DNA from: Opitutia bacterium
GTDB taxonomy: Bacteria; Verrucomicrobiota; Verrucomicrobiia; Opitutales; Opitutaceae
Direction: 5' to 3'
DNA: 64,000 nucleotides
Assembly: GCA_947467625.1 (NCBI GenBank)
Contig: CANIJN010000002.1
Location: 714 to 64,713 of the forward strand
Of this stretch, positions 9,862 through 42,809 are shown one piece after another. Position 1 is the stretch's first letter. Every line of letters begins with the position of its first letter. The notes below the pieces were generated by a model. It worked only from the letters and a program-made list of their open reading frames with translations. It was not told where the DNA came from and ran no database searches. The position numbers and the translations under genes are program-made.

Positions 9862-10256
9862 GATTGATAAAGGGTGGGGATGCCTGAGTTCCGGAAACTT
9901 GACAAGAGTTCCTCTCGGAAACCTGCATTGGGCTGTGCCATTGAACGTCATGTCAGAGGTTTGCTTTAGGCCCGGCAGGTGGTAGGGCATCAACCGGCCA
10001 CCGGTCGGTTCGACACCAAGAGCTGACTCAAGCAACCAAAGAGGGGTAGGCATCCGCTGACTTCATTATCACAAAGCCCGCGAGGGAGAGTCGCAGTGCG
10101 GCGACGGCCTATGCGCAACGTCACGCGAGGACTCTCCAGAACGCAGACCACCGCGGACTAAAAAATAAACCATGCGACCTTGCGTTCACGTGGCGCCAAA
10201 TGTAGATCCAACGAAAGGTTATCTCATAGAGGAGCCGTCTCGCGGGGGAGTTTCGA

Positions 10257-10845: not shown

Positions 10846-13800
10846 ATGAACAAAAAACTGAATCCCAACTTCTCTCTGAAGAAGTTACTATTGTCCGCCC
10901 TCGTTGCTGGACCGCTGGCTATTTTGCCCGCTCCACTCTGGGCGTTGCCAAGCACAGCTGCTACCAACCTCACCACCTCATCGACTTCGATCACGTATTC
11001 GGGCGTGCTTGATGGTGTCGCTGCGGGCGCGCTGAATATCACGGCTCCGGATAAATCCATCCTCACGTGGCAGTCTTTTAACATCAACCAAGCGGACACG
11101 ATCAATTACCTGCTCCCGTCCACCACCGCTTCGGTGCTGAACAATGTGGCAGGTGGTGCCGCTTCCACCATCGCTGGCGCGATCAATTCGAACGGTAACG
11201 TTTATGTGTTGAATCCGGCCGGTATCGTCATTTCTCAAACGGCTCAGATCATCACCGGCGGCTTTTACGCCAGCACGGTTGCTGAACCCAGCTCGTTCTT
11301 CACCACCACTGGAACCCTGAATTTCACGGGTAGCGCCACGACGGACGTCGTCGTTCAGTCCGACGGTCAGGTTACCGCGGGCCAGATCGCCTCCATCCAA
11401 GCACTCGGCACCGGTAACAAGATTACCCTCGCCGGTCGCAGCGTCCTCGTCGAAGGTGCGAATCTCTTCGGTAATGTGACGTTGCAGTCTGCTGCCACCG
11501 GTAAGGTCAATCTGGCTCAGACCAGCGACACGGTTGGCCGCCCTCAAGCGGGTGGAGCAGTTAATATCAGTCAGGCCGCCGGCTCTGGCGGCAATCTGAC
11601 GATTGTCAGCAACGGCGGGACGGTCTCCCTGACGGGTGCACCGGTCGCAGTCAGCAATAACTCAGATACTGCTGCTGGTCCGGCCGTCAGCGTCAATGCG
11701 ACGGGTGGACTTGTCGTCGGCGCGGGCGGTCTCGGTGGTAGCGGCTATGCCCCTAGCTCCAATATCGCTCTGTCGATCACGGCACCGCTGATCCGTCAAA
11801 GTCTCAACTCGACGACCACCGCTTCGACCTCGGTCGGAACCACGGCTGTTGGTTTCGCAACCACTAATGCGCAGGGACAAATCACGGGCTACTCGCTCAC
11901 CACCAATGGAGCTCCTTCGATCGGCAGTGGCTACATTTCCAACGTCACCAGCAGCGTGATTGGAAACAATGTCACGATCACGGTGCCTCAGGTCGGCTTC
12001 GCCACCAATGTGGCCGGCGCGCTCAGCGTTAATACCACCGGATCAACCTCCAATGGTCCTGTTACGCAAGGTGCTGGACTCTCGACCAGTCGTTTGACCG
12101 TTACCGGTGCAGCGACGATCACCACCGCGACCACCGCGACCACCGCCGCCGCCGCTGACGTGACCTTGGGCAACGCAGCTCTATCCACGCTCAATCTGCC
12201 TCTCGTCGGAACCGTCAACGTGATCGAAGCCGATGGCTTTGCCCTCGGCAACGCGAAGGTTCTCCCAAATGCGGCCAACGCTGTCACCCTGCGCGCACAA
12301 GCTGGAAATATTTCCATGAGCGGCACGTCCAAGGTTGAAATCGTTCCTTCTGTCCTTGTTCCTGCTCCGAATACCCTGCTCACCGCTAACACGGGTGGCG
12401 TCACCTATAGCAATATCGGAGATCTGAAGATCACGACCTTGAGCACCACGACGTCCTCATCTGGCGTCACGGCCCTTACCTCGACGGGAAATGTCACGAT
12501 TCCAGCCTTCTCGTCTCCCTCGCTCACCATCACCACGACCGGTGGTACGATCACCACGGGTAATCTGACGACGACCTCTGGGGCCGCCAATCAGGTGTCC
12601 GCGACGCTGACCGCCAATGGCAATATCTCGGTCGGTACCGTTAACACTTCGGGTAAAATCGTCATCAACTCCACCGGTGGCACGATCACCCTCGGTCAAG
12701 CTGCCAATGGTTTCATGACCACCGGCGCAGGTCTCGACCTTAAGGCTGTGGGCGACATCACCATGACCAATGCCACGGCTCTCGTTACCTCCGGCACAGA
12801 TGCGAAGATCGCGTCCACGACCGGTAACGTTACGCTCACGGGCGGCTTCGCTGGCGGCGGTGCGATCACTGCGGCTAATAACATCACCATCGGCGCCCCT
12901 GGCACCGGTAAACCAAGCGTGAATGCGAATACCGCTTTGGACACGTCCTCGATTCTCTCGAAGGTCACCGGCGGCACCACTAGCAATCCTGCTGGTCTTT
13001 ACGCTCCCAATAGCCAAGTCCCGATGGCGGTGACGACGACTGGTACTGCCCCGGGCACCACGGCCACCGGATATTTCACGACCAATGCGTCGGGTCAAAT
13101 TAGCGGCACGGTTATCACCGAGGTCGGAGCCGGATACACGTTTACTAACTCAGGAACCACTGTTACTAACCCGAATGTGACCTTCACCGCCAACGCAGCC
13201 CCCACCAACTCGGTGGTTGCGAATACGGCGCTCACCCTCACCGCCACCGCTGGTACCGTCGCTGTCGCGAGCCCGATCGTGGGAACCGGCGCGGTTACTA
13301 TCGTATCCGGAGGGGCCCTTACGGTTCCCTCTATCACGGCCCCGAACGTCTCCTTGGAATCCACGACAGGATCCATCGCGCAGACTGCCGCGACCGCAAT
13401 CACCGCTTCTGGGAACACGACGCTCAAAGCAGCCACGAGCGTCTCGTTGGATCTCGCCGGCAACGACTTCAATAATGTTGTCCTCACTTCGAGTCCGTCA
13501 GGCGTGACCCTCAAGGACGCCAATGCGCTCACCTTGGCCAATGGCACTAATGCGGCCGGCAATGTGACCATCACCTCTGGTGCTGGCCTGACCGGTTTTA
13601 CGAACCAGAACATCCCCGTTCCATCTCCGAATGTCGCCGTGACCTTCGGAGCTGCTAGCGTCTCCGCCGGCTCGGTTACTTCCGTGGCTCTGACTACGAC
13701 GGGCACCGGCTATGCGGCAAATGCGACGATCCCAGTGACCTTTTCGGCACCTCCAGCGCAATCGGCTGCAGGACTTGTGATCGCCAGCTCGGCGAGCACC

Positions 13801-16638
13801 GGTCAGAGCAACAATGGCTTTGTACTCGGCGCTGTCGGCTCCACTGCTGCTGGTCTTCAAGCTGTGATCTTGCCTACTCCGATCGGCAACGGTTTCGTGA
13901 GTGGATCTGAAGTCCCTCTGACCGTGACCATGGCGGGCGGATTTGCTGGCGTTGCGCCGACTGTCGTCGGTGTTGCTAACAGCAACGGCCAAATCGCTTC
14001 CGTAAAAGTCACCAGCCCCGGATCAGGGGTGACCACCGGCTCGCTGACGAACATCACCACCACCGCTATTGCGCCGATCGCGAGCGCCACAGCGACGGGT
14101 AATATCGTCACGAATGCTGCGGGACAGGTTACCGGGTTGACGGTGACCGACGGTGGCTCCGGCTACCTCGGCTCCTTTGTACCTCGGGTCACTCCCCCAG
14201 CTGCCCCCACCGCGGGAGCTGCTGCCATCATCACGCCTGTCCTCGCGGCCGGTGCTATTACGTCTGCCACGTCCACGGCTGGTGCAGGGTTTATTACGGC
14301 TCCGGTCATTGCCGCGACGGCGACCGCTCCAGCCTTCACGACCACGATCGTGAACGGTGCCATCGCGACCGTTACCCCGATCGCTACGGGTGGCGTAGCT
14401 CTGGGTTCTGCTTCGACCGACGTCATCAAGGTTGCGGGTAACCTTACGCTCAGTTCCGTTGGACCTGTGGGCACTGCTACCACGGCAGGCTCGACCGTCA
14501 CGGCAAACTACTCCGAACTCACCACGGTTGCTGCTAATGTTGCCGTTGTCGGTAACGTGAGCCTCAACACCTTGGGTGCTAACGCCACCTTCGGTGTTCC
14601 TACCGGTGGTTTCGGTGCGGCCCCAGCGGTCACTGCTGCTGCAGTCGGCGGCGCGATTGGTACCGGTACGTTCACGGTCACCCAGAATAACTCGGTCAAT
14701 CTCGGAGCCACGACGGCAGGCGTCCTGAAGGCTAAGAGCGCCGCTGGTGACATCACCAGCTCCGGCAAGCTCGCGATCGCGGGCGCCTCTGAGTTCACGG
14801 CGAACAGCCTGTTTGCTCCCGGTGTAATCACGCTGAATGATGCGACCAACGTCTTTGGTGGCACGGTTTCCATCATCAACGGTAAGAATGTCTCCGTGGT
14901 CGGCGCGACGACGGTGACGGTTGGTTCGGCTGCCCAGAACGGTGTGGTCTCCGGCTCCATTTCGGTGGAGAACTCCGGTGCGCTGACTCTCAACACTGCT
15001 GGCAACGGCAACCTGAGCGTCGTTAGCTTCAAGGCCGGCGGTGCCGTCGTCATCAATGATGGCACGAACACCGATGGTCTGACCCTCCAAAACATCAGCA
15101 ACACCGGTGCGGGAACGGTGGCAGTCACGGCGGCCGGCCCGATCACGTTGGGTTCTGGCATCCAATTGGCGAGCACGGGCACGACGACGATCACATCGAC
15201 CGGCGCCGCAGCTTCGATTAAGGATTCTGCGCCTGGCATCAGCATCATCAACGCGCTGACGCTCGCTTCGGACAACGATATCGCCATCACCAACACCGGT
15301 CACTCGGTCGGTCGCGTGACGATGACCTCGGGTCTCGGCGGAGCTTCCACCAATGCTAACATCACGTACCAAGAGGGTGGCTCGGCTAATCTGGGTGCCG
15401 TCACGATCACTGCAAATGCCACGAATCCTGGTTCCTTGTCCGTGACGAGCACGGGTGGCAGCATCTTCCAAGGTGCGGGCACGATCACGGTGCCAACCAT
15501 CGCAGGTGGCACCAACACGGTCTCGTTCAGCGCTCCTAATGGTAGCGTCACACTGGATCTCGCTGGTAATACCATTGCTCCAGCCGTCGCTCTGACGGCA
15601 TCGGGCAACTCGACGGTTCGCCAGTCTACAGCTCAGAACCTGACTTTGGGTAATGTAGCAGTCACTGCGGGGACCTTCCTCGCTACGGTGAATACCGCGG
15701 CCATTGAGCTCGCTCAAGCTGCTGGCACTTCGGTCCGCGTCTTTGGTGATACCACGCTGAACACCGGCGGTAAGATTACCCTCGATAACGTGGGTAACAA
15801 CTTCGGCGGATTGACGATCGCTTCGAACGTCGGATCGGCCGTCGGCGCCGCGGTGGTATTGCGCGAGGGTGGCACGATCAACCTCAAGGCAGTCGACACC
15901 GGCACGGGTGGTTTGACGTTTACCAGCACGCTGAAGTTAACCTCTGAGGGAGGATCAATCGTCTCGAGCCCAACGGCTCTGCAGGCCAAGATCATTAAGG
16001 TCGGTGGTTCAACGACTCTGGTCTCGGCGGCTGATGTCACTCTGAACACCACGGATGTTGCCAACAACTTCGGTGGCCAGAGCATCACGGTCACGGCCCC
16101 AGGCACTGTCTCGATCCAAGACAACAATGCTACTACGGTCATCGCCGGTGGTTCCACGATCGGTGGCACGCTGACGATCAAGAATGACAATGCGGCCGGC
16201 ACCATCAAGGACAGCCCCGGTGCGTTGACGGTAAACGGCAATGTCTTCCTCCAGACGAGCGCGACGGGTAGCATCAACATCGGGGCTTCGACGGCCACGT
16301 TGGGTGCGATTCAGTTCCGCTCCGGTGGCGTGAGCATCGCTGAGGCGACCACGTTGAATCTGGCTGCGGGCAGCACCAGCGCAGCGAACTCGGTGGTCCA
16401 ACTGAGCAGCAACGGTGACATCGTGACGAGTGGCTTGGGTGGCGGTAGCTTCGGTGGCACGCTCTCCTTGAACGCCAATGGTAGCATCACGGTTTCGAAC
16501 CCCATCTTTGTCGCGCAAGGTCTGACCTTCCGTGCCTTGGGTGCGGTCAACCTGAGCGCGCTGAGCCAGACCGGCAATTTGTCCGGTCTCGCCCCGACTA
16601 ACCTCGGAGCCGCCAGCTACGTTGCTCCTTCCCCGTAA
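10846..16638 (+). CDS. TpsA exoprotein: filamentous-hemagglutinin N-terminal (TPS) domain protein, giant beta-helical adhesin-like
   Basis: 1930 aa. Signal peptide: MNKKLNPNFSLKKLLLSALVAGPLAILPAPLWALPS. The TPS domain motif ILTWQSFNINQADTINYLLPSTTASVLNNVAGGAASTIAGAINSNGNVYVLNPAGIVIS corresponds to the LNRV...NPNGI pattern. The remainder is T/S/A/G/N/V-rich repeats typical of a beta-helix. By eye there are no Cys and one His. Confidence 0.9.
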   Translation: MNKKLNPNFSLKKLLLSALVAGPLAILPAPLWALPSTAATNLTTSSTSITYSGVLDGVAAGALNITAPDKSILTWQSFNINQADTINYLLPSTTASVLNNVAGGAASTIAGAINSNGNVYVLNPAGIVISQTAQIITGGFYASTVAEPSSFFTTTGTLNFTGSATTDVVVQSDGQVTAGQIASIQALGTGNKITLAGRSVLVEGANLFGNVTLQSAATGKVNLAQTSDTVGRPQAGGAVNISQAAGSGGNLTIVSNGGTVSLTGAPVAVSNNSDTAAGPAVSVNATGGLVVGAGGLGGSGYAPSSNIALSITAPLIRQSLNSTTTASTSVGTTAVGFATTNAQGQITGYSLTTNGAPSIGSGYISNVTSSVIGNNVTITVPQVGFATNVAGALSVNTTGSTSNGPVTQGAGLSTSRLTVTGAATITTATTATTAAAADVTLGNAALSTLNLPLVGTVNVIEADGFALGNAKVLPNAANAVTLRAQAGNISMSGTSKVEIVPSVLVPAPNTLLTANTGGVTYSNIGDLKITTLSTTTSSSGVTALTSTGNVTIPAFSSPSLTITTTGGTITTGNLTTTSGAANQVSATLTANGNISVGTVNTSGKIVINSTGGTITLGQAANGFMTTGAGLDLKAVGDITMTNATALVTSGTDAKIASTTGNVTLTGGFAGGGAITAANNITIGAPGTGKPSVNANTALDTSSILSKVTGGTTSNPAGLYAPNSQVPMAVTTTGTAPGTTATGYFTTNASGQISGTVITEVGAGYTFTNSGTTVTNPNVTFTANAAPTNSVVANTALTLTATAGTVAVASPIVGTGAVTIVSGGALTVPSITAPNVSLESTTGSIAQTAATAITASGNTTLKAATSVSLDLAGNDFNNVVLTSSPSGVTLKDANALTLANGTNAAGNVTITSGAGLTGFTNQNIPVPSPNVAVTFGAASVSAGSVTSVALTTTGTGYAANATIPVTFSAPPAQSAAGLVIASSASTGQSNNGFVLGAVGSTAAGLQAVILPTPIGNGFVSGSEVPLTVTMAGGFAGVAPTVVGVANSNGQIASVKVTSPGSGVTTGSLTNITTTAIAPIASATATGNIVTNAAGQVTGLTVTDGGSGYLGSFVPRVTPPAAPTAGAAAIITPVLAAGAITSATSTAGAGFITAPVIAATATAPAFTTTIVNGAIATVTPIATGGVALGSASTDVIKVAGNLTLSSVGPVGTATTAGSTVTANYSELTTVAANVAVVGNVSLNTLGANATFGVPTGGFGAAPAVTAAAVGGAIGTGTFTVTQNNSVNLGATTAGVLKAKSAAGDITSSGKLAIAGASEFTANSLFAPGVITLNDATNVFGGTVSIINGKNVSVVGATTVTVGSAAQNGVVSGSISVENSGALTLNTAGNGNLSVVSFKAGGAVVINDGTNTDGLTLQNISNTGAGTVAVTAAGPITLGSGIQLASTGTTTITSTGAAASIKDSAPGISIINALTLASDNDIAITNTGHSVGRVTMTSGLGGASTNANITYQEGGSANLGAVTITANATNPGSLSVTSTGGSIFQGAGTITVPTIAGGTNTVSFSAPNGSVTLDLAGNTIAPAVALTASGNSTVRQSTAQNLTLGNVAVTAGTFLATVNTAAIELAQAAGTSVRVFGDTTLNTGGKITLDNVGNNFGGLTIASNVGSAVGAAVVLREGGTINLKAVDTGTGGLTFTSTLKLTSEGGSIVSSPTALQAKIIKVGGSTTLVSAADVTLNTTDVANNFGGQSITVTAPGTVSIQDNNATTVIAGGSTIGGTLTIKNDNAAGTIKDSPGALTVNGNVFLQTSATGSINIGASTATLGAIQFRSGGVSIAEATTLNLAAGSTSAANSVVQLSSNGDIVTSGLGGGSFGGTLSLNANGSITVSNPIFVAQGLTFRALGAVNLSALSQTGNLSGLAPTNLGAASYVAPSP

Positions 16639-31384: not shown

Positions 31385-31717
31385 ATGAGTTCGGGCGACG
31401 ATAAGCGACGGCTCACGATGGGACTACGCGGGCTAATTCTTCAGGGAAAAAAGCATCATTCGGAAAATTTGGTTTACAAGGCAAACGCCGCACCCTTCTT
31501 TGAAGACGATTCTAATTTTCCAACACGACCTGTGAGCAACGACCCTACGCGAAAACAATTCTTTGCCAAACTCCTCGGCGCAGCTGCGGCCGTGAGTGTT
31601 GCTCCTAAGCTGCTCGCATCGTCTGGACAGCCTCTCGCCCCCTCAGCCACCTCGGCACTGCCCGTGATTGTGCGTTCCGAAGTCCGCGCCGTTGCTCGCC
31701 GCGCTGGCGCGGTTTAA
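31385..31717 (+). CDS. Hypothetical small protein with a Tat-like motif (doubtful CDS; possibly starts at GTG 31532)
   Basis: Track ORF, 110 aa. The 5' half is noticeably AT-richer and looks intergenic. The 3' part encodes PTRKQFFAKLLGAAAAVSVAPKLLASS, an S/T-R-K-x-F-F-x-K motif plus a hydrophobic h-region. No family was recognised. Confidence 0.25.
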   Translation: MSSGDDKRRLTMGLRGLILQGKKHHSENLVYKANAAPFFEDDSNFPTRPVSNDPTRKQFFAKLLGAAAAVSVAPKLLASSGQPLAPSATSALPVIVRSEVRAVARRAGAV

Positions 31718-31749: not shown

Positions 31750-32409
31750 ATGTCGAAACTTTTTCCAAAGTCGGCGAACAAGCTTCCGTTTCAGATCATC
31801 ATCTACCTCGGGGTACTCGTGTGCGTGGCGACCGCGGGAGTGACCTACTACATGACGCCGAAGTACACGCGCGTCGGCTACGCTCCGGTCCAGCCGGTGC
31901 CTTTCAGTCACGCGAAACACGTGCAGGAGGTCGGCCTCGATTGTCGGTACTGCCACTCGAATGTGGATAAGTCCGCCCACTCAAATGTCCCCACGTCGCA
32001 GACGTGCATGAACTGTCATAATCAGATCAAGACGACGAGTCCGCTCCTCGCCCCGATCCGTGAGAGTGCCGCCACCGGCAAGGCCGTTCCGTGGGTTTGG
32101 ATCCACAAAACTCCGGACTACGCTTATTTTAATCACTCCATCCACGTGAACCGCGGCATTTCTTGCGTCGAGTGCCACGGCAAGATTAACGAGATGGATG
32201 TCGTCACCCACATGCAGCCGCTCAGCATGGCTTTCTGCTTGGAATGCCACCGCCATCCCGAAGCCGCTCTTCGTGATCCGAAAGACGTCTTTAACCTCGA
32301 TTCGAAACGCCTCGCCGACCAAGGCGAAGCCGGTGTGAAACAGGCGAAGGCGCTCGTAGATAACTGGAAAGTGAAACCTCCCCAGAGCTGCTCCGGCTGC
32401 CATCGCTGA
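31750..32409 (+). CDS. actA: Alternative complex III subunit ActA (pentaheme cytochrome c)
   Basis: 219 aa with an N-terminal TM and five CxxCH motifs: CRYCH, CMNCH, CVECH, CLECH, CSGCH. Confidence 0.9.
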   Translation: MSKLFPKSANKLPFQIIIYLGVLVCVATAGVTYYMTPKYTRVGYAPVQPVPFSHAKHVQEVGLDCRYCHSNVDKSAHSNVPTSQTCMNCHNQIKTTSPLLAPIRESAATGKAVPWVWIHKTPDYAYFNHSIHVNRGISCVECHGKINEMDVVTHMQPLSMAFCLECHRHPEAALRDPKDVFNLDSKRLADQGEAGVKQAKALVDNWKVKPPQSCSGCHR

Positions 32410-35400
32410 TGAAACGCATATTTGAACATCCCGCTCCGTCGGAACGTGAGCTGAACGGCCCGAAATACTGGCGCAGCCTCGATGAGCTTGCAGCGACGCC
32501 TGGGTTCGTGGACCAGCTGAAACGCGAATTTCCTCAGGGAGCTGCGGAGTTGGACGGCGTCGATCGCCGTCACTTCATGAAGATCATGGCGGCTTCGTTT
32601 GCCCTCGGAGGCGTCGGCCTCGCGGGGTGCCGTCGTCCCGAGTTAAATATTCTGCCCTTTGGCAAATCTGTCGAAGGCATTATTCCCGGTCTGCCGCAGT
32701 ATTACGCGACCGCGATGCCGTTGCGCAAATCGGCGATCCCGTTGCTTGCTGAGACGCATCAGGGGCGCCCCACGAAGCTCGAAGGCAACCCCAGCTACTT
32801 GCCGCACGGCAGCGCCAGTTCACTGCTCGCTCAGGCTTCAATCCTCGATCTGTACGATCCTGATCGGGCCACGGCTCACACCAAGGGCGCCTCGGTACTG
32901 ACGTCTGCGGCCGTCAACGAGCTCCTGGCTAATGTTGGCAAGAATTACGCCGCGTCCCAAGGCGCTGGCCTTGCTTTCTTGGCCGACCAATCGTCGTCGC
33001 CGACTCGTGCGCGAATTCTCAAAAAACTTCGTCGGGCGTTGCCGAAGGCCATTTGGGCCGAATACGAGCCGGTCACTGACGAGCCTCCGCTCGCCGCTGC
33101 GCAGGCTGCTTTCGGAGCCGACGTGAAGCCGATTTATCGGTTCGCCCAAGCCAAACGCATTCTCTCGCTCGACGCTGATTTTTTCCACGCCGAGTCTGGT
33201 AGTTTGTACTACGCTCGCGAATTTGCGAAGGGTCGTCGGGTCACGAAAGCGACCGATCCGATGAATCGCCTGTATGTGGCGGAGAGTGCGTTTACCCTAA
33301 CGGGCAGCATGGCCGATCATCGTCTGCGCCTCGCGACGAGCCACATGCTTGCATTGGCCGCAGCGATCGGGGGCAAAGCCCTCGGCACCGACATTCTCAA
33401 GCCCTTCACCGAGGGGCTCGAAGCCTTCGTCAGTCAGAAGTGGGTCGATGAATGCGCTCAAGATCTTGTTGACCACAAGGGTGAATCTCTCGTGGTCGCC
33501 GGCGCGCATCTCCCGCCGCAGGTCCACGCCATCGCCTACGCGATCAACGCGCTCCTCGGTAATATCGGAAAGACGATTGATTTCGTGGCCGTCGAAGCAT
33601 CGTCTGCCGCTACCCTTTCCGACCTCGCGGGGGCGGTCAAAACCGGTGCGGTCAAGACGCTCGTTATTCTCGGTGGCAATCCGGTTTACAACGCTCCGGT
33701 CGATCTCGACTGGGCTAAGCTACAGGCTTCGGTTGCAGACGTGATTCGGCTCGGCTACGCGGCCGATGAAACGTCCGCACTCGCGGGGACGAACTTGGCC
33801 TCCGCCCATTATCTTGAGTCCTGGGGCGACGCTCGCACCGCGGACGGCACTGTGGTGCCGGTGCAGCCGATGATTTTGCCGCTCTTCGGCGGGATCACTC
33901 AGCTCGAGGTCCTCGCCCGGATCGCGGGTGAAGCCAATCCGGATGGTTACGCGCTCGTGAGCGAGACGATTGCGGCGCTAGCGGGCGGCGATGCCGAAAA
34001 GGCGATGCGCCGTTTCCTTCACGATGGACTCCTCGAAGGCTCGGCGTTCAAGAAAGTGCCCGTTTCCTTTGATCAGCGCGGTGCCCAGGTCTTGTTCCGC
34101 GATGAACCGAAGAAGGTCGAGGCGTTCTCGTTGAAGAACCTCGAAGTCCGTTTCGTGACCGACCACAAAATGGACGATGGTCGTTTCAATAACAACGGCT
34201 GGCTCCAAGAGTGCCCTGATCCGATTACGAAAATCTCGTGGGACAACGCTATTCTGGTGAGCCCGAAGCTCGGCAAGGAACTCGGGATCGCTCCTCAAGG
34301 CTCAGCACTCCAAATCGCTCGCGTTGAGGAAAACGACTTTTCGATCGGCAAGGAAAACGGGCGCGTCTACGAACTCACGGTAGGCGGTCGCAAGATCAAG
34401 GGCCCGCTGCACATCCAGCCAGGTCTCTCTAACTATACGGTGGTTGTGCCCTTGGGTTACGGCCGCGTCGCAACCGGCCACGTGGGAAAAGGTGCTGGTT
34501 TTAACGCCTATCCGATCCGCACGGTCGCGAATCAAGACGTTGCCACGGGTGGCACGCTCGTCGACACCGGCACGCGACTCCTCCTCGCCAATACTCAGGA
34601 ACATTGGTCGATGGAAGGCCGCGATATCGTGCGCGAAGCCAACTTCGACGAGTACCAGAAGAATCCCGGCTACGTTGACGATATCGGCACGGAGTCGCAC
34701 TCACCGGCGATTTACGGCGCACAAAATACCCCGACTAACGATAACAAGCTCTCTCGCGAGGATCGCGCCAAGCTGAACGCGACCCGTGCGAAGGACATCC
34801 CGCGCGGCGGCTCGATGTATTCGACGCCGAAGTTCGACGGACAGCACCAGTGGGGCATGTCAATCGATCTCAACACTTGCATCGGTTGCAACGCCTGCGT
34901 GGTGGCATGTCAGGCTGAGAATAATATTCCAATCGTGGGCAAGGACCAAGTGATGCGGGGACGTGAGATGCATTGGATTCGTCTCGACCGCTACTATTCC
35001 GACGGCAAGGCCGAAGGCGGTGCCTTCGGCGGCGAAGGCAATCGCGAGATCCCTGAGGATCCGCAAGTTTCCCTCCAACCCGTCGCTTGTGCTCAGTGTG
35101 AACTGGCCCCGTGCGAAGTTGTTTGCCCCGTCAATGCGACCGTGCACGACGAAGAAGGCCTCAATACGATGGCGTACAACCGTTGCATCGGCACGCGTTA
35201 CTGCGCGAACAATTGCCCTTATAAGGTCCGTCGCTTTAATTTCTTCGACTTCAACTTGCGCCAACTTGATAGCCTTTACCTCGGTCAACTCGGACCGAAG
35301 GGGATGCCGGAACTGGTTAAAATGGTGAAGAATCCCGAGGTCACCGTCCGCATGCGCGGTGTGATGGAAAAATGCACCTACTGCGTTCAACGCATCCAGA

Positions 35401-35831
35401 ATGGGAAGATCCAGCACAAGGTAGCCATGGCTCAGGCCGGCAGGCCGGGTGACGTCGTCGTCCCGGATGGCACGATCAAAACTGCGTGCCAACAGGTGTG
35501 CCCAGTCGAAGCCATCGAGTTCGGTAATATCGACGATCCCACCAGCAAGGTTTCGCGGGCAAAAGCCTTGGAGCAGGACTATTCGTTGCTCGGTTATCTC
35601 AATATTCGCCCCCGCACCACGTATCTCGGCAAGCTCCGCAATCCGAATCCGAAGATGCCCGATTATCAAGCGCTGCCGCTCAGTCGCGTCGAATATAACA
35701 GTAAGAATCACCCTCCGTCCGATCACGGTCACGGTGCACATGGCCACGACAGCCATGCGCCCGCCGCTCCAAAGACCGAGAAAAAACACAGCGTCATCGA
35801 CGCGGGTAAAACGTTCGGAGGACTTAGCTAA
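32409..35831 (+). CDS. actB: Alternative complex III subunit ActB (fused molybdopterin-oxidoreductase-like B1 and 4Fe-4S B2 domains)
   Basis: 1140 aa. Tat signal: [23 protein letters not shown]. The C-terminal ferredoxin-like Cys clusters are [44 protein letters not shown] and CTYCVQRI...CQQVCP. Its start overlaps the actA stop (TGATG). Confidence 0.9.
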
Positions 35832-37261
35832 TGGCCCACGCCCATCACGCCGACACTGCGACCCCTGCGATCTTGCAGGAAGTCAAACCTGCCTCGCTTC
35901 CCCGTGCGATCCTCGTTGCGAATAACCGGAGCTTTTCTTGGATTACGGAAAAAATCTGCGGTATCATCGAAGGTAAAACGCCCACGTGGTGGTGGGTGTG
36001 CTTCGCCCTCGCGTGTTTCGTCGCGTCGTTCACGGTCGCGGGAATCGCCTACCTGATCTCCACTGGTGTCGGCGTCTGGGGCCACGCCAATCCCGTCAAC
36101 TGGGCCTGGGACATCGTTAACTTCGTCTTCTGGATCGGTATCGGCCACGCGGGTACGTTAATTTCCGCCATCTTGTGCCTGCTGCGTCAGAAGTGGCGTA
36201 CTTCGATTAATCGCGCCGCCGAGGCCATGACGATCTTCGCTGTGGTGTGCGCTGCGATCTTCCCAGTCTTCCACGTCGGTCGCGTTTGGTATGCGTGGTA
36301 TCTTTTCCCGATTCCTAATTCGAACGCCATCTGGCAGAACTTCCGCTCGCCCCTTGAGTGGGACGTGTTCGCTGTCTCGACCTACGGCACGGTCTCGGTG
36401 TTGTTCTGGTACGTGGGACTTTTGCCCGACCTCGCCGTGCTTCGCGACCGCTTCTACTCCTCCGGCAACAAGCTTCGCTCCGCTCTTTATGGATTCTTTG
36501 CCCTCGGATGGCGCGGTTCGAACCGCCACTGGAGCAACTACGAAATGGCGTATTTGATCCTCGCCGGTATTTCGACTCCCCTCGTTTTGTCGGTGCACAC
36601 GATCGTCTCGTTCGACTTCGCGGTCTCGCTGCTCCCGGGTTGGCATACAACCATCTTCCCGCCGTATTTCGTCGCGGGAGCTATTTTCTCCGGTTTCGGG
36701 ATGGTGCTTACGCTGATGCTTCCACTCCGCGCCGTTTACAAGCTGGAGGACCTCATCACGCAGTATCACATCGACTGCATGTGCAAGATCACCTTGGCGA
36801 CTGGCACGATCGTCGGCTACGCCTACGCGATGGAGTTCTTTATCGCGTGGTATGGCGCGAATCCGTACGAGGGCTTCGCCTTCATCAACCGCGCCTTCGG
36901 CCACTACGCGTGGGCCTACTGGATCATGATTTCCTGCAATGTCATTACGCCCCAGTTCTTCTGGTTCAAGGCAGTGCGCGAAAACACCTCGTTCGTTTGG
37001 ATTCTCTCGATCTTTGTTAACGTCGGCATGTGGTTCGAGCGCTTCGTGATCATTGTTACCTCTCTCGCCCGTGACTTCCTGCCGTCGAGCTGGGGTTACT
37101 ATTCTCCGAGCATCGTGGAAATCTTTACCTTCTTCGGCACCTTCGGCGTATTCTCGGTGCTGTTCCTCCTCTTTATCCGCTTCCTCCCCATCATGCCGAT
37201 GGCAGAGCTCAAAGCGGTCACGCCGCAGGCCGATGTGCATGGCGGCGGCGCTCACCACTAA
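35831..37261 (+). CDS. actC: Alternative complex III subunit ActC (NrfD/PsrC-family quinol-interacting membrane subunit)
   Basis: 476 aa, polytopic. NrfD-type motifs: [31 protein letters not shown]. Its start overlaps the actB stop (TAATG). Confidence 0.9.
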
Positions 37262-37272
37262 GTTTCACGCCC

Positions 37273-37806
37273 ATGGCTGCACCATCCTACGGCTTGATTG
37301 CCACCTTCGATACCACGCCTGATCTCTATCATGCGGCCGCAAAAGTGCGCGATGCCGGTTACCGTAACTGGGACTGCATTACGCCGTTCCCCGTGCATGG
37401 ACTCGACAAGGCGATGGGCGTCCCACGCTCGATCGTTCCGCGGATTTCGCTCGCGGGCGGTATCATCGGTTTTTGTACCGGTATGTCGATGATCTGGTGG
37501 ACTGGGGCGGTGGACTATCAGCTCATCGTCGGCGGGAAACCTCTTTTCAGTCCCATGTTTGCTTTTCCCGTGAGCTATGAGCTCACCATTCTCTTCACCG
37601 CGTTTGCGACCATTGGCGGCATGTTGTTCCTCAACGGCCTGCCTATGCACTATCACGCGGTGCTGAAATACGAGCACATCCGCCGCGGCATGGATGATCA
37701 GTTTTTTATCGTCATTGAGACGCGCGATCCGCGCTTCAATCTCGCCAACACCAAGGCCCTGCTTGAAAAAGCCGGCGGGAAAAACATCTCGGAACTCGAG
37801 GCCTGA
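37273..37806 (+). CDS. actD: Alternative complex III subunit ActD (DUF3341-type)
   Basis: 177 aa. YGLIATFDTTPDLYHAAAKVRDAGYRNWDCITPFPVHGL is followed by two TM helices. The position and pattern match ActD. Confidence 0.8.
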   Translation: MAAPSYGLIATFDTTPDLYHAAAKVRDAGYRNWDCITPFPVHGLDKAMGVPRSIVPRISLAGGIIGFCTGMSMIWWTGAVDYQLIVGGKPLFSPMFAFPVSYELTILFTAFATIGGMLFLNGLPMHYHAVLKYEHIRRGMDDQFFIVIETRDPRFNLANTKALLEKAGGKNISELEA

Positions 37807-37809
37807 GCC

Positions 37810-38460
37810 ATGCGCAACGTCTACCTCGTCACCGCATTCGTCGGCGTGCTGATTGTTTCCATTTTTGGATTCCGTGGCACGAAGTTCACTTCGCCCCCGA
37901 TCGAAGTGTTTCCTGAATGGGCCTTTCCGGGCATGAAGAATCAGCCCAAACCTCGTGCCCAGGGTTCTTCTGACTTTTTCGCCGATGGACGCGCCGATCG
38001 TCCTCCAGTCGAGCGCGCGGTTATGCGCGGGATGCTGCGGGAAGACGAGCACCTCAATCGGGGTAAAGACGCGACTGGTGCCTTTGCCCGCGGATTCCCC
38101 GCCGCACTTTCAGTCGAGGTTGACCTTAAGTTCCTCCAACGAGGTAGGGATCGTTTCGAGATTTATTGTGCGCCTTGCCATAGTGCAGTGGGTGATGGTG
38201 GCGGCATCACGAAACAATATGGGATGGGTGCAACGCCCACCTTCCATGACGATCGGCTCCGGAAGATGCCCGAAGGTGAAATTTATAACACGATCACCGT
38301 TGGTTCACCCAATAAAAACATGCAGTCCTACGCCGACAAACTGGCCCCGGAGGATCGCTGGGCGGTCGTCGCCTACGTCCGTGCTCTGCAACGCGCGCAG
38401 CAGGGTGTCGTCGCCGACGTCACCGACGCCGCCGGTAAACAAACCCTCGGTCTCAAATGA
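37810..38460 (+). CDS. actE: Alternative complex III subunit ActE (monoheme cytochrome c)
   Basis: 216 aa with an N-terminal TM, a single CAPCH motif and a downstream Met region (KNMQSY). Confidence 0.8.
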   Translation: MRNVYLVTAFVGVLIVSIFGFRGTKFTSPPIEVFPEWAFPGMKNQPKPRAQGSSDFFADGRADRPPVERAVMRGMLREDEHLNRGKDATGAFARGFPAALSVEVDLKFLQRGRDRFEIYCAPCHSAVGDGGGITKQYGMGATPTFHDDRLRKMPEGEIYNTITVGSPNKNMQSYADKLAPEDRWAVVAYVRALQRAQQGVVADVTDAAGKQTLGLK

Positions 38461-39734
38461 GCAGCACGCACGCAGCCACCGCCTCCTCGGCCCTTCCGTC
38501 TGACACCTCGACCGCCGCCACAGCGACAAAGGCCCTCACGGTCGGTCTCGTCGGTCTTGCGGTCACCGCTCTCGGTGTTGCCGTCATGCCCGATCGGCAC
38601 GGCCCGGTGATGTCGTACTTGGTCGGCATCACGTTCTGCACCTCGATTCTCATCGGCATGCTCATGCTGATTTTGATTCATCACATCGTGGACGCTTCCT
38701 GGTCGGTTGTGATTCGTCGGCAGTTTGAACACGCCCTCACCTCGTTCAAGTGGCTCTTCTTGCTCTTTCTCCCGTTATTGGCCCTTGCGTGGGTAAAACC
38801 TGGATTCGTCTGGCCGTGGATGGACCTCACTCACGAGCTGCATGGTCATGGTACGGTCGGGACAGATATTCTGTATCAAAAGAAGTCTGGCTTCCTGAAT
38901 TTGCACATGTTCACCGGCATGACGCTCGCGTTCTTCGCCAGCTGGGTTTGGCTATCCGCTCGCCTCCGCAAAGCTTCGTTTACGCAAGACTCCGACGGTG
39001 ACATTAAGTGGACTTTCATGAATCGGAAGACGGCGGCGATCGGTCTGCCCATCGGTGCTCTGACGCTCAGTTTTGCGGCGATCTACTGGGTCAAGTCCCT
39101 CGAGTACCATTGGTTCTCGACGATGTATGGCGTATGGTTTTTTGCGAATTGCATCCGTGGTGCCTTGGCCATCGGAGTAATTATCATGATCTGGCTTTGG
39201 AATCGTGGGGATTACAAGGGCGTGCTGAACACCAACCATTTTTACTCGATTGGTATGCTCGCTTTTGCCTTCACCGTGTTTTGGGCCTACATCACGTTCT
39301 CTCAATATTTCCTGATCTGGAATGCGAACGTCCCTGAGGAAACCTTTTGGTATAACCTCCGTGAGGTGAACCACGATGGCTCCACGAACCAATGGTGGTA
39401 TGTCGGACTCGTGCTGCTGTTCGGGCACTTTTTCATCCCGTTCCTCTACCTTCTCTCCTACAAACACAAGGTCGTCCATTCGAAGATCAAACCCATCATG
39501 TGGTGGATCTTGGCCGTCATCCTTGTCGACATGTGTTACAATATTTTACCGGCCCTGAAGGATGGGCACGGTGATTCACTTCCGTTCCTCTCGCTCAATC
39601 TTCTCTGGGTCCTGACGTCAGTGGTCGGTATTGGCGGTGTCTGCGTGTGGTCCTATCTGAAGAGTTTCCCGACAGCCAAGCTCATTCCCATCCGCGATCC
39701 TCGCATCACCGAGAGCCTTACGCACCATGAGTGA
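38457..39734 (+). CDS. actF: Alternative complex III subunit ActF (ActC-related membrane subunit)
   Basis: 425 aa, polytopic. Operon position after actE with a 4-nt overlap. Assigned mainly from its position and membrane topology. Confidence 0.75.
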   Translation: MSSTHAATASSALPSDTSTAATATKALTVGLVGLAVTALGVAVMPDRHGPVMSYLVGITFCTSILIGMLMLILIHHIVDASWSVVIRRQFEHALTSFKWLFLLFLPLLALAWVKPGFVWPWMDLTHELHGHGTVGTDILYQKKSGFLNLHMFTGMTLAFFASWVWLSARLRKASFTQDSDGDIKWTFMNRKTAAIGLPIGALTLSFAAIYWVKSLEYHWFSTMYGVWFFANCIRGALAIGVIIMIWLWNRGDYKGVLNTNHFYSIGMLAFAFTVFWAYITFSQYFLIWNANVPEETFWYNLREVNHDGSTNQWWYVGLVLLFGHFFIPFLYLLSYKHKVVHSKIKPIMWWILAVILVDMCYNILPALKDGHGDSLPFLSLNLLWVLTSVVGIGGVCVWSYLKSFPTAKLIPIRDPRITESLTHHE

Positions 39735-40059
39735 TTCATCTGCCCATTCTCCGCGGCCCGTGGCGCTGATTACCACGCTGTTTATCTTCGCCGTTGTGGC
39801 CACTGGCTGGGTCCTCGTTTCCCGCCTTTATGACCCGACGTCCACGTCGCCACAAAACGCGGTCGCCGAAAATCTCCCCAAGGAATTGGCTTGGAAGGCG
39901 ACCCCAGCAACGCGCAAGCAAGCGCTCGGTGAGCTTCGCGAGAAGCACGCCCAGCAGGCAATCGCTTATGCGTGGATCGACAAGAATACGGGCGTCGTGC
40001 AACTCCCCATTGAACGCGCGATGCAACTGACGGCCGCCCAATACGGGTCCAAGAAGTAA
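39727..40059 (+). CDS. Hypothetical single-pass membrane protein linking the act and cco-like genes
   Basis: 110 aa with one TM (VALITTLFIFAVVATGWVLV). It overlaps actF by 8 nt and ends 13 nt before the next gene. No family was recognised. Confidence 0.5.
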   Translation: MSDSSAHSPRPVALITTLFIFAVVATGWVLVSRLYDPTSTSPQNAVAENLPKELAWKATPATRKQALGELREKHAQQAIAYAWIDKNTGVVQLPIERAMQLTAAQYGSKK

Positions 40060-40072
40060 TTTAATTTTCTCG

Positions 40073-41494
40073 ATGTCTTCGACCTCCACCCACGCTGAAG
40101 TCACTGCCGCCGATACGGCTGGACGCTGGCCGGTGCTCCTCCTGCTCGCCTCTGGGCTCGGGTGGCTCGTGATCAGCGGCATTTTTGCACTCATTGCTTC
40201 CATCCAGTTGCATAGCCCGACTTTTATGTCGGCCTGTGAGTGGTTCACGCACGGTCGGGTCGGAGCCCTCGCCGAGACGTCCTTTGTCTATGGTTGGGCC
40301 GCGAACGCCGGACTCGGGATTGCACTCTGGGTCCTTGGGCGCCTTGGCGGCGCGACGCTGCGTGCCCAAAACTGGGCGATGACCGGCACTCTTTTCTGGA
40401 ATCTGGGTATCACGCTCGGTCTCGGCGGTATTGCCACGGGAGAGGCCACCTCGTTCGCATTCTTGGAATTGCCCCGTTACGTGCAGCCACTGCTCGTCGT
40501 TGCGTATATCGCCATCGGAATTTCCGGCATCCTCGCTTGGTCTGGGCGTCGGACCGAAGGGACCTATGCTTCTCATTGGTATGCCGTCGCCGCGTTGTTT
40601 CTCTTCCCTTGGCTGCTGATCGCTGCGCAGACGATGCTGCTATGGAGTCCGGTCCGCGGTGTGCTCCAGCCGATTATCGATGGCTGGTATGTGCAATCGG
40701 TATTTTCCCTGTGGCTCGCCCCGTTGGCTTTGGCCGGTGCTTATTACGTGGTACCCAAGATTACCGGACAGGCGCTTCCGAGCTACGAATTCGCGCCGCT
40801 CGCCTTTTGGACGCTCCTTTTTGTCGGTACGATGACTGGTGGACGGCATTTAATCGGGGGTCCTGTCCCGGCTTGGATTCCTACGCTAGCCAACGCTGCG
40901 TGTTGGATGGTTCTTTTTCATTTTATAGTGGTGGCGCTCAACCTCCGGGGCGCTCTGACCGGCGGTGGCACTTCCCTTACGTTCATTTCCTTCGGCCTGC
41001 TCGCTTACTTCGCTGGTGCTGTGCTGGATGCCGTCACCTCGTTCCGTGGTGTGGCTTTGGTTACCCAGTTCACGTATTTCACGACGGCTCAACAGCAACT
41101 CGCGCTCTATGGCGGAATTTCGATGCTGCTCCTCGGTTCGATTTATTTCGCGGTGCCCCGTCTAACTGGCCGTCCTTGGAACTCAGGGTCTTTCGTCCGC
41201 GGACATAGGGTGCTCGCGATGGTCGGCATTTTCCTCCTAGTCGGTTCCCTCGCGGTCGCTGGATGGATTCAGGGCACTGAGTTGAGCAACGCTAAGACCA
41301 CGTTTGGTGAAATCGCTGGTCGCACTCGTCCGTGGTTGCTGGCGGTTACGGTTGCGCAGGGCTTTTTGTTGGTCGGCAATATCCTTATTTTGGTGAATTT
41401 CCTGCGCAGCGTGAGCGATGTGTGGTGCGCTGGAGCGGTTTCCCAGGTGGGGGCCTTCCGGCAGCCAACGACGATGGAGGTTCATGCGTCATGA
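40073..41494 (+). CDS. ccoN: cbb3-type cytochrome c oxidase subunit I (CcoN) homologue, apparently lacking most metal-ligand histidines
   Basis: 473 aa, 12 or more TM. Gapless similarity to canonical CcoN helices VI-VII: IIDGWYVQSVFSLWLAPLALAGAYYVVPKITGQALPSYEFAPLAFWTLLFVGTMTGGRHLIGGPVPAW versus [68 protein letters not shown] (reference recalled from memory). See the findings for the ligand substitutions. Confidence 0.8.
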   Translation: MSSTSTHAEVTAADTAGRWPVLLLLASGLGWLVISGIFALIASIQLHSPTFMSACEWFTHGRVGALAETSFVYGWAANAGLGIALWVLGRLGGATLRAQNWAMTGTLFWNLGITLGLGGIATGEATSFAFLELPRYVQPLLVVAYIAIGISGILAWSGRRTEGTYASHWYAVAALFLFPWLLIAAQTMLLWSPVRGVLQPIIDGWYVQSVFSLWLAPLALAGAYYVVPKITGQALPSYEFAPLAFWTLLFVGTMTGGRHLIGGPVPAWIPTLANAACWMVLFHFIVVALNLRGALTGGGTSLTFISFGLLAYFAGAVLDAVTSFRGVALVTQFTYFTTAQQQLALYGGISMLLLGSIYFAVPRLTGRPWNSGSFVRGHRVLAMVGIFLLVGSLAVAGWIQGTELSNAKTTFGEIAGRTRPWLLAVTVAQGFLLVGNILILVNFLRSVSDVWCAGAVSQVGAFRQPTTMEVHAS

Positions 41495-42147
41495 TGAAAA
41501 ACGGCTTTTTCTTCTTCATCGGCCTGCTCGCCGCGTTTCTTTTGGGATGGGGTGGTATACCCCTTTTGGCCCACAAACAAATTGGTGCGCTTGCCCCATT
41601 CTACGATGACGGCGAGAGTTCATCGTTTCCGACGCGCCCTCCCGGGGTCGCGGCCCGAGGCCAACTCGTCTATGCGGATTTGGGCTGTGTGGCCTGCCAC
41701 ACGCAGCAAGTTCGTCGGCCCGATTTCGGCTCCGATAAGGCTCGTGGTTGGGGTGATCGCCAGAGCGTGGCCCGCGACTACATTTTTCAAGGTCGCCCCC
41801 AGCTTGGTGATGCGCGCATTGGGCCTGATCTTGCGAACTGGGGTGTGCGTAAACCCCCGCTCGATGCGGGTGGTATTGCGCAGTTCCTCTACAGCGGTGT
41901 GGTGAGCGGGGCCAAGGCCGTGACCCATCCCCCGTTTCCTTTTCTGTTCGACGATCGTCCGATTGTCGGTGAGGCGGCGCCCGACGCACTCGTCGGTCTA
42001 GTTGATAAAACACCCCGTCGACAGATTGTGCCGACCGAGCGTGCGCGGACGCTGATCGCGTATCTGCAGAGCTTGAATAACGCCTACGAATATCCCGAAG
42101 CACGTCATGTGGTACCCGTAGTTGCCAAGGAGGGCGCACACAAATGA
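41491..42147 (+). CDS. ccoO: cbb3-type oxidase subunit II (CcoO)-like monoheme cytochrome c
   Basis: Starts at ATG 41491 (ATGA overlap with the previous gene); the longer track ORF from 41332 is rejected. MMKNGFFFFIGLLAAFLLGW is a TM helix. GQLVYADLGCVACHTQQVRR ... SVARDY ... LGDARIGPDLANWGVR matches the CcoO pattern (GR.lY...GC..CH.Q..R ... R.GPDL...G.R). Confidence 0.8.
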   Translation: MMKNGFFFFIGLLAAFLLGWGGIPLLAHKQIGALAPFYDDGESSSFPTRPPGVAARGQLVYADLGCVACHTQQVRRPDFGSDKARGWGDRQSVARDYIFQGRPQLGDARIGPDLANWGVRKPPLDAGGIAQFLYSGVVSGAKAVTHPPFPFLFDDRPIVGEAAPDALVGLVDKTPRRQIVPTERARTLIAYLQSLNNAYEYPEARHVVPVVAKEGAHK

Positions 42148-42809
42148 GCACGCCGTTGCACCAAGATCCACGCCTCGATCAAGCCGCCTCCACAGATGAG
42201 AGCTTGCTTGCGGCGCACGATAAGCTCCTAGGTAAGCAGCCAGACGAGAAGGGCAGTTACAAACTTCCTCCGCTCCATCTCCTCTTTTTTTTCAGCGGTT
42301 TGATCTTCTTTGCGGGCACGTATCTTAATCGTTATTCCGGCATGTTTGATCCCCGCGTTTACAACGAAAATACGCTCCCTCCCAGAGGCGAAATCGTTGT
42401 CGCGAAACTTGATCCGCTCGTGCTGGGAAAGAAACAATACGAGGCGATTTGCATCACGTGTCACCAAGCCAATGGCCTAGGTTTGCCGGGCGCTTTCCCT
42501 CCGCTGGCTGGGTCTGAATGGGTGGCGGGTTCGGATGACCGTCTGATTCGCCTTGTGGTTTACGGGATGACCGGCCCCATGACTGTCAAGGGAGTGCTCT
42601 ACAACGGCGCCCAGATGCCTACGATCGGCAAGGTGGCCAATTCCCAATACAATCTTAGCGACGACAAGGTGGCCGCCGTCTTGACCTATATCCGTCACGA
42701 ATGGGGTAACACGGGTGCGCCTATCACGACCGACCAAGTCGCTGCCGTTCGCAGCAAAGAGGGCGATCGTAAGCCCTACATCGAGGCGGAGCTGCTCAAG
42801 CTCAACTAA
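42144..42809 (+). CDS. Membrane-anchored class I monoheme cytochrome c
   Basis: 221 aa with a TM helix (LHLLFFFSGLIFFAGTYL). CITCHQANGLGLPGAFPPLAGSEWV ... YNGAQMPTIG ... LSDDKVAAVLTYIRHEWGN. ATGA overlap with the ccoO-like gene. Confidence 0.8.
   Translation: MSTPLHQDPRLDQAASTDESLLAAHDKLLGKQPDEKGSYKLPPLHLLFFFSGLIFFAGTYLNRYSGMFDPRVYNENTLPPRGEIVVAKLDPLVLGKKQYEAICITCHQANGLGLPGAFPPLAGSEWVAGSDDRLIRLVVYGMTGPMTVKGVLYNGAQMPTIGKVANSQYNLSDDKVAAVLTYIRHEWGNTGAPITTDQVAAVRSKEGDRKPYIEAELLKLN

Follow-up and report, generated by a model that had tools for sequence, protein, structure and literature searches.

A homologue of CcoN, subunit I of cbb3-type cytochrome c oxidases, that lacks five of the six histidine ligands of the heme and copper cofactors is encoded in a window of 64,000 nucleotides (nt) from an Opitutia bacterium of the family Opitutaceae, Verrucomicrobiota (the window is the whole stretch of DNA analysed here: positions 714 to 64,713 of the forward strand of contig CANIJN010000002.1, GenBank assembly GCA_947467625.1). 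The gene (N; its product is called the N protein below) stands eighth in a compact operon (31750-42809) that encodes alternative complex III (ACIII), as identified by the set and order of ActA-F, the ActD family match, the NrfD-type ActC, the pentaheme ActA, the monoheme ActE and the Fe-S subunit ActB. The N gene is preceded by a small open reading frame (ORF) and followed by the genes of a CcoO-like cytochrome (the O protein) and of a second cytochrome c. The ActF gene and the small ORF overlap by 8 nt, a gap of 13 nt separates the small ORF from N, and the N/O and O/cytochrome c junctions are each ATGA overlaps, with the true start of O at 41491. The coupling of N to ACIII and to the CcoO-like gene, which had been claimed in a preliminary description of this DNA, was thus confirmed.

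The N gene is intact, with an ATG start, 473 codons for amino acids (aa) and a single terminal stop, and the histidines of its product are restricted to residues 7, 47, 60, 168, 259, 283, 378 and 471. When the protein was compared with the PDB using phmmer, only cbb3 CcoN chains were matched, among them that of Pseudomonas stutzeri (3mk7_A, E 4.8e-10), and the alignment with this chain is gap-free from about residue 177 to 288 (helices VI-VII). The reference numbering was rebuilt from the phmmer alignment and recovers H60, H207, Y251, H257, H258, H345 and H347 of P. stutzeri CcoN. Five of the six ligand histidines and the cross-linked Tyr251 are absent from the N protein in three independent alignments and in one structural match (Table 1); a run of three glutamines (Q340-Q341-Q342, 41090..41098, +) spans the His345 and His347 columns. 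Around the ligand columns, relatives that keep the ligands (32-40% identical to the N protein where measured) align without gaps. The loss is therefore not produced by a shifted alignment, since these relatives align gap-free and the structural match to CcoN has a template modelling (TM) score of 0.86-0.88; the preliminary description had raised such a shift of its by-eye alignment as a concern. Its reading frame without internal stops, its list of eight histidines, its gap-free match over helices VI-VII and its replacements at the columns of H60, H207, Tyr251 and H257, with H258 kept as H259, were all reproduced. For the heme b3 and second heme b ligands, the aligned strings it gave were right and the numbers were one codon off (A339 and Q341, 41087-95, in place of Q340 and Q342). 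Its conclusion that the binding residues for heme b and for the heme b3-CuB centre are missing is supported by the ligand columns.

Table 1. Genes of the ACIII operon and residues of the N protein at the CcoN ligand columns, in window coordinates
Feature	Residue in the N protein	Position (nt)	Strand	Evidence
ActA, pentaheme cytochrome c of ACIII		31750..32409	+	Cytochrome c7/c3 Pfam; NCBIfam QrcA-like; five CxxCH
ActB, fused molybdopterin-like (cofactor-less type) and 4Fe-4S ACIII subunit		32409..35831	+	Fer4 Pfam domains; NCBIfam QrcC, QrcB and twin-arginine translocation (TAT)-variant molybdenum cofactor (MoCo) signal
ActC, NrfD-type quinol-interacting membrane subunit		35831..37261	+	PF03916 NrfD, 86.7 bits
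ActD		37273..37806	+	PF11821 ActD, 210.9 bits
ActE, monoheme cytochrome c		37810..38460	+	PF13442, PF00034; one CxxCH at residue 120
Membrane subunit in the ActF position		38457..39734	+	No Pfam match; ActF slot in every related locus; dN/dS 0.00-0.07
Small single-helix protein, 110 aa		39727..40059	+	No family match; hydrophobic helix at residues 12-30
N protein, CcoN (cbb3 subunit I) homologue		40073..41494	+	PF00115; without five of six His ligands and the cross-linked Tyr
Heme b His60 column	A67	40271-73	+	Alignment
CuB His207 column	Q208	40694-40696	+	Alignment; Gln in 121/121 close homologues
Cross-linked Tyr251 column (helix VII)	G252	40826-28	+	Alignment; Gly in 120/121 close homologues
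CuB His257 column	R258	40844-46	+	Alignment; Arg in 121/121 close homologues
CuB His258 column	H259, sole ligand kept	40847-49	+	Alignment; His in 116/121 close homologues
Heme b3 His345 column	Q340	41090-92	+	Alignment
Heme b His347 column	Q342	41096-98	+	Alignment
O protein, CcoO-like monoheme cytochrome c, N-terminal membrane helix		41491..42147	+	PF02433 FixO, 31.6 bits (cut-off 29.6)
Membrane-anchored monoheme cytochrome c, c552/NirK C-terminal-domain type, CcoP position		42144..42809	+	PF00034, PF13442; CITCH at residues 103-107

The small protein is weakly homologous to a 153-aa protein in the same slot of the Telmatocola operon described below (E 2e-4) and was found in nearly all related loci whose contig extends upstream of N. 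The operon is flanked by an ABC transporter upstream and, on the opposite strand downstream, by an epimerase, pyrroline-5-carboxylate (P5C) reductase and FolD. A scan for promoters and terminators was uninformative on the boundaries (4 promoter-like sites observed against 3.9 expected from shuffled sequence, and 19 terminator-like sites against 13.7). No ccoS, ccoI or ccoQ was found near N in the window, and a Pfam scan of the 40 largest ORFs of the window found no other heme-copper or bd oxidase family.

The family assignment of the N protein is that of a divergent CcoN. It matches PF00115 (COX1) with 119.3 bits over residues 21-428 and scores 86.5 bits, below the cut-off of 583.15, with the NCBIfam ccoN equivalog TIGR00780. 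An AlphaFold2 model was built from 66 family members (mean predicted local distance difference test score, pLDDT, 84.6; predicted TM score, pTM, 0.88), and its best Foldseek matches are CcoN chains (3mk7_A, TM 0.86-0.88 at 20-21% identity); NorB and A/B-family subunits rank below CcoN, with nitric oxide reductases (NORs) at TM 0.75-0.77. Model confidence is lowest (60-77) in residues 190-270, which form helices VI-VII, the helices of the former binuclear site, and reaches 85-98 in most other helices. The model shows that the predicted 12-helix CcoN fold is kept. Like cbb3 CcoN (P. stutzeri, PDB 3MK7/5DJQ), the N protein thus has this fold, a CcoO-like monoheme c partner with a membrane helix, and the structural motifs W..Y, YY.VPK, FW and P.W. 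It differs from CcoN in lacking His60, His207, His257, His345, His347 and Tyr251 and in falling below the equivalog cut-off, and the locus differs from canonical cbb3 operons in that the third subunit is a monoheme c552-type protein and not the diheme CcoP.

Homologues of subunit I of the heme-copper oxidases (HCOs) that have altered metal ligands and no active-site tyrosine are known in gNOR and the newer NOR families (PMC11214002), which the N protein resembles in these respects. In gNOR one histidine is replaced by aspartate, and this is the only family said to replace an active-site histidine (PMC11214002). The N protein has lost all heme ligands and two of the three histidines that, with a Glu, make up the non-heme metal site of HCO-type NORs; with five of six histidines gone, including all three heme ligands, it cannot be classed as a NOR.

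The substitutions are shared by close relatives. The 120 closest homologues (59-96% identity) are, where named, from Verrucomicrobia, Opitutus or Opitutaceae, and among these and the N protein Q208 (121/121), G252 (120/121), R258 (121/121), H259 (116/121) and Q332 (121/121) are near-invariant. A single-protein scan of genome contigs returned only three near-identical loci, in metagenome-assembled genomes (MAGs) of Opitutus/Opitutaceae. Ratios of nonsynonymous to synonymous substitution (dN/dS), calculated by the Nei-Gojobori method against three orthologous loci, were 0.077-0.109 for N, compared with 0.00-0.09 for ActA-F, 0.05-0.13 for the small ORF and 0.07-0.14 for the CcoO-like gene. The N gene is selectively retained, under purifying selection. 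A recently inactivated pseudogene, or an artefact of alignment or sequencing, is accordingly an extremely improbable account: the ligand loss itself speaks for it and nothing else does, and against it stand the intact ORF with a dN/dS of about 0.1, the same substitutions in hundreds of independent assemblies, and the gap-free alignment confirmed by liganded close relatives and by structure. The marks of a decaying gene (frameshifts or stops, dN/dS near 1, sporadic distribution) were looked for, and the gene was found to have an intact ORF, a dN/dS of 0.08-0.11 and a distribution over hundreds of assemblies. The preliminary description had proposed that the gene is being retained and is no dying pseudogene; the proposal is borne out by the intact ORF, by a dN/dS against three orthologues near that of the ACIII genes and by the 120 homologues in which the substitutions are near-invariant.

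The ligand-less form extends well beyond the window's close relatives. An exhaustive search of 1.84 billion cluster representatives (50% identity level) gave 1,321 matches at E<=1e-3, with 289 clusters at E<=1e-30, and ligand patterns were read in the 130 full-length sequences among the best 150 representatives (28-57% identical to the N protein). Read in the order of the seven columns of Table 1, the full HHYHHHH set was present in only 4/130; the other 126 have zero to two ligand histidines, rarely three or four, with highly variable replacements and, in many, a two-residue deletion at H257/H258. At least 126 clusters are therefore ligand-less, and all their named members are Verrucomicrobiota. 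Positions conserved in at least 85% of the ligand-less representatives are mainly Gly, Pro, Trp and Arg, nearly all of them common to most or all liganded relatives, and a column comparison with the liganded relatives found no His, Met, Cys, Lys or Tyr whose conservation is particular to the ligand-less ones. Since ancestral structural positions are kept and no clade-specific potential ligand appears, there is no sign of a replacement cofactor site and the fold is kept. A metagenome search with a pattern derived from a 12-sequence alignment returned 80 loci (N 36-96% identical to that of the window), and in 80/80 the order ActABCDEF, small protein, N, CcoO-like protein, cytochrome c is preserved over all that the contigs cover.

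Relatives with the full ligand set are found at this same position of the operon. The co-location of ACIII and cbb3 genes is known in Verrucomicrobia, for example in Methylacidiphilum, where it was read as a high-affinity oxidase (PMC6688271). In Telmatocola sphagniphila (Planctomycetota) the operon comprises ActA, ActB, ActCD, ActE, ActF, the 153-aa protein, FixS, CcoN, FixO, cytochrome c and a P-type ATPase, and liganded operons are also present in many Opitutaceae, including Nibricoccus, Actomonas, TAV1 and EW11. These superoperons with an intact CcoN correspond to that of the window gene for gene (ActA-F, small protein, N, O, cytochrome c) and differ from it in the HHYHHHH pattern, in ccoS directly upstream of N and in the WHHRHLY motif of CcoO. 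Two further observations concern Telmatocola: ActC and ActD are fused into one protein of 667 aa (locus L004, 5088-7091), and the P-type ATPase (CcoI-like) that ends the operon is absent from the Verrucomicrobial loci examined.

One liganded Opitutaceae locus (L089) has the same downstream P5C reductase and FolD genes as the window, so that its CcoN with ccoS (L089/L090, 10001-11485) lies in the same chromosomal neighbourhood as N of the window (40073-41494). The FolD proteins of the window and L089 are 81% identical. Between window and L089, window and Telmatocola, and L089 and Telmatocola, respectively, identities are 91%, 62% and 61% for ActC, 69%, 45% and 43% for ActB, and 36%, 32% and 52% for N. 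These values show a strong rate asymmetry on the ligand-less N branch, which fits past relaxed or altered constraint and present purifying selection. The N protein descends from the catalytic subunit (CcoN) of a cbb3-type oxidase linked to ACIII; having lost the binding residues for heme b, heme b3 and CuB together with the redox-active Tyr, it most likely no longer reduces oxygen. As a separate observation, the cluster of protein P0229 (Ottowia, Alicycliphilus and Diaphorobacter; Burkholderiales, Comamonadaceae) consists of fully liganded CcoN of about 550 aa that scores above 190 bits with the N protein, compared with about 45 bits for Pseudomonas CcoN; this similarity would extend the ACIII-type CcoN lineage beyond the PVC group (Planctomycetota, Verrucomicrobiota and Chlamydiota).

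Insertion of the cofactors into CcoN requires CcoS. A ccoS (FixS) gene lies directly upstream of N in 7/7 liganded loci with upstream sequence and in 0/66 ligand-less loci (Fisher p 6e-10); this co-loss with the ligands gives independent support for cofactor loss, and from the ligand columns together with the missing ccoS we infer that the N protein carries no heme b, heme b3 or copper. It is very unlikely that the protein instead binds heme or metal through unconventional ligands and performs some redox chemistry. Candidate ligands would be H259 (116/121) and H283 (40919-40921; about 98% conserved in the window's subfamily, where it is a derived and specific residue), and a partly cofactored form does appear to exist elsewhere: protein P0127, described below, keeps both heme ligand sets without the tyrosine and two CuB histidines. 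Heme b, however, has lost both its axial ligands (H60, H347) and heme b3 its proximal one (H345), no candidate ligand is conserved across the clade, ccoS is missing from all 66 ligand-less loci, and the CcoN equivalog score is 86.5 against a cut-off of 583. As an observation in its own right, the window's subfamily has, where the active site once was, a conserved group of polar residues made up of H283, R258, H259, Q208 and Q332.

The same residues bear on another account, in which the N protein conducts or gates ions or protons in step with ACIII turnover, either as a retained function or as a new one, for instance through what is left of the K-type proton path or through a polar cavity where the binuclear site used to be. 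Near-invariant Q208, R258, H259, Q332 and Q342 in the window's subfamily are consistent with such a role, as are purifying selection over the whole protein and the retention in this subfamily of Y224, N290 and Y312, the counterparts of P. stutzeri Y223, N289 and Y317, which we take to line the proton channel of the C family. Across the wider ligand-less clade, however, the residues at these columns differ widely, with only Y225 and N290 conserved at about 90%; the channel residues S240 and H243 are replaced by Ala, Y317 is Phe in the second ligand-less subfamily (B, defined below), and no new polar motif runs through the clade. On balance a conducting role is unlikely.

Both c-type cytochromes have stayed intact while N lost its ligand set. 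The O protein keeps the heme-binding motif CVACH (residues 66-70, 41686-41700), and CxxCH is retained in all complete CcoO-like partners. It also keeps its membrane helix and co-evolves with the N protein. The column of the axial methionine was fixed by transitivity, by aligning IMPPF of Telmatocola to KMPAY of the solved CcoO; the methionine of the latter is presumably the sixth heme c ligand of the 3MK7 structure. In the O protein this column holds His146 (41926-41928), so that the earlier claim of an intact heme c subunit stands for CVACH and needs qualification at the column of the axial methionine. His is found here in 108/121 close homologues of the O protein, and the 80 metagenome loci have 57 Met, 10 His and 1 Lys; liganded operons have Met, as do most of the other ligand-less lineages, and Cys or Lys occurs in single cases. 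The heme c of the O protein in the window's subclade is thus probably, from its sequence, bis-His coordinated and of lower potential. A Met-to-His change as a general feature of ligand-less loci was considered and rejected, since the change is confined to this subclade. The WHHRHLY motif of CcoO, present in liganded operons, is gone from the three ligand-less partners aligned (window, L005 and L008).

The protein encoded by the third gene is 38% identical to its counterpart in the Telmatocola ACIII-cbb3 operon and matches PDB 2zoo (E 1e-20), in the C-terminal cytochrome domain of Cu-nitrite reductase, and Thermus c552 (E 2.5e-16). By these similarities it is an electron-donor domain of a typical kind.

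Two ligand-less subfamilies were distinguished among the loci: A (xQGRHQQ), to which the window belongs and in which H258 is retained, and B (AHTSRRW), in which H207 is retained. Trees were built by neighbour-joining only. In the N tree A and B are grouped with 100% bootstrap support and the liganded L089 and L078 with 96%, whereas in the ACIII trees A and B are never grouped (0%) and L089 stands beside or inside A. Seven derived residues relative to the liganded set are common to A and B (e.g. H337 to Q, S240 to A); at four columns the two carry different changes, and at 14 only one of them has changed. The incongruence suggests an exchange of modules at a conserved locus, or long-branch attraction. 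The comparisons favour a single origin of the ligand-less N with later exchange, at the conserved locus, of either the N-O-c module or the ACIII genes; independent ligand losses in A and B combined with long-branch attraction are the alternative, and neighbour-joining trees do not settle between the two. An intermediate form, P0127 (locus L006, 5791-7251; Opitutales MAG GCA_040903965.1), has the pattern HHAQYHH: it retains the two ligands of heme b, that of heme b3 and H207, but has Ala in place of Tyr251 and Gln/Tyr in place of H257/H258. Its locus has no ccoS upstream, and its CcoO partner keeps the Met and WHHRHLY. P0127 may, from this pattern, be a heme-only, copper-less CcoN.

The reading that we favour, with a probability of roughly 60%, is that the N protein is a CcoN that has neither activity nor cofactors and is retained as a scaffold holding two intact c-type cytochromes to the membrane at the exit of ACIII. 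Of the roles listed in the preliminary description (a scaffold, a proton or quinone channel, or an electron-exit module for ACIII), the data lean towards scaffold and electron exit. As a cofactor-free membrane platform it would hold both the CcoO-type heme c subunit and the membrane-anchored cytochrome of c552 type in place beside ACIII. It would persist on account of the need of CcoO-type subunits for a CcoN platform, a need that is assumed because every solved cbb3 structure has CcoN-CcoO as its stable core; such structures are the only PDB matches of the N protein. Electrons derived from quinol would pass from the hemes of ActA and ActE to the c hemes of the two cytochromes and on to a distinct terminal enzyme, bypassing the N protein itself, and in the window's lineage a lower-potential bis-His heme in the CcoO-like subunit would fit a relay and not a donor to a high-potential oxidase site. 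More speculatively, an arginine conserved at what was the CuB site (R258 here; in the other subfamily, Arg occupies columns 258 and 345) might replace the charge of the lost metal.

Strict operon linkage and purifying selection fit any role that depends on ACIII, including one in which the N protein is needed only to assemble or stabilise ACIII or the two cytochromes, as a chaperone-like or regulatory factor and not as a stoichiometric subunit. We consider this quite unlikely: the cbb3 oxidases of known structure, which the N protein matches best in both fold and sequence, all have a stable CcoN-CcoO core, and the CcoO-like partner, which co-evolves with the N protein, has not lost its membrane helix.

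Docking of the N protein on ACIII is assumed from the precedent of the ACIII-caa3 supercomplex of Flavobacterium johnsoniae, a cryo-electron microscopy structure known here through its citation in PMC8552683 and PMC8361435. There, too, the gene of an oxidase-family subunit I directly follows the ACIII genes; in that organism its product is physically bound to ACIII. The F. johnsoniae partner is an active A-family oxidase with all cofactors, unlike the N protein, which belongs to the C family and lacks the cofactor ligands, and no cbb3-ACIII structure was found among the PDB matches to the N protein. A cofactor-free structural relic is made plausible by ACIII itself, in which ActB matches the 'molybdopterin-binding-like' QrcB model. 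ActB1 of ACIII and QrcB of Qrc contain molybdopterin-family domains that have no molybdopterin and are put to structural use. They would parallel the N protein as formerly catalytic modules kept for architecture after loss of the cofactor, by analogy from a different protein family.

Several points weigh against the scaffold. The absence of heme b and copper is deduced from sequence and from the missing ccoS, and the physical association with ACIII from operon structure alone. The change of Met to His in CcoO is limited to the window's subclade and is no part of a general mechanism. Q208, R258, H259, Q332, Q342 and the subfamily-specific H283 are strongly conserved in the window's subfamily, and conserved polar residues at the old active site may point beyond scaffolding. 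A wider proposal is that a whole clade of HCO subunit I has become a cofactor-free 'pseudo-oxidase' and forms an obligatory part of an ACIII electron-exit supercomplex in Verrucomicrobiota, sending electrons through the CcoO-type and c552-type hemes to acceptors other than its lost active site, possibly with ion or proton conduction, and that the N-O-c module had a single origin and was exchanged by recombination with the intact one; as a whole this is tentative and rather doubtful.

Elsewhere in the window, a 110-aa ORF without a family match (31385-31717, +) lies between the ABC-transporter genes and ActA. A ShlB/FhaC-type two-partner-secretion transporter (8212-10053, -) adjoins a divergent ORF of 1,930 aa with DUF5649 repeats (10846-16638, +); the two are probably a TpsB/TpsA pair unrelated to the N protein.

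A ligand-less CcoN does not appear to have been reported before, as the preliminary description had supposed: no description of such a protein or of a 'pseudo-oxidase' was found in full-text searches of the literature. A 2024 survey of HCOs described the active-site histidines as completely conserved outside gNOR (PMC11214002), and sequences without the six histidines were discarded in the work on an HCO classifier (PMC3084760). New here is a selectively retained clade of C-family subunit I that is cofactor-less as far as its sequences indicate. A large ligand-less clade under purifying selection shows that the HCO fold can be kept for a non-catalytic purpose.

Every source that names proteins of this type calls them "cbb3-type cytochrome c oxidase subunit I". 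Genes for cbb3 oxidases are common markers of high-affinity, microaerobic respiration, and Verrucomicrobiota are abundant in soil and freshwater; part of the cbb3 marker signal in this phylum would be false. The locus further provides a testable hypothesis of how ACIII passes electrons on when it is uncoupled from its own oxidase, and the liganded and ligand-less versions at the same locus in one family would constitute a natural experiment on what becomes of a respiratory complex after its active site has been lost.

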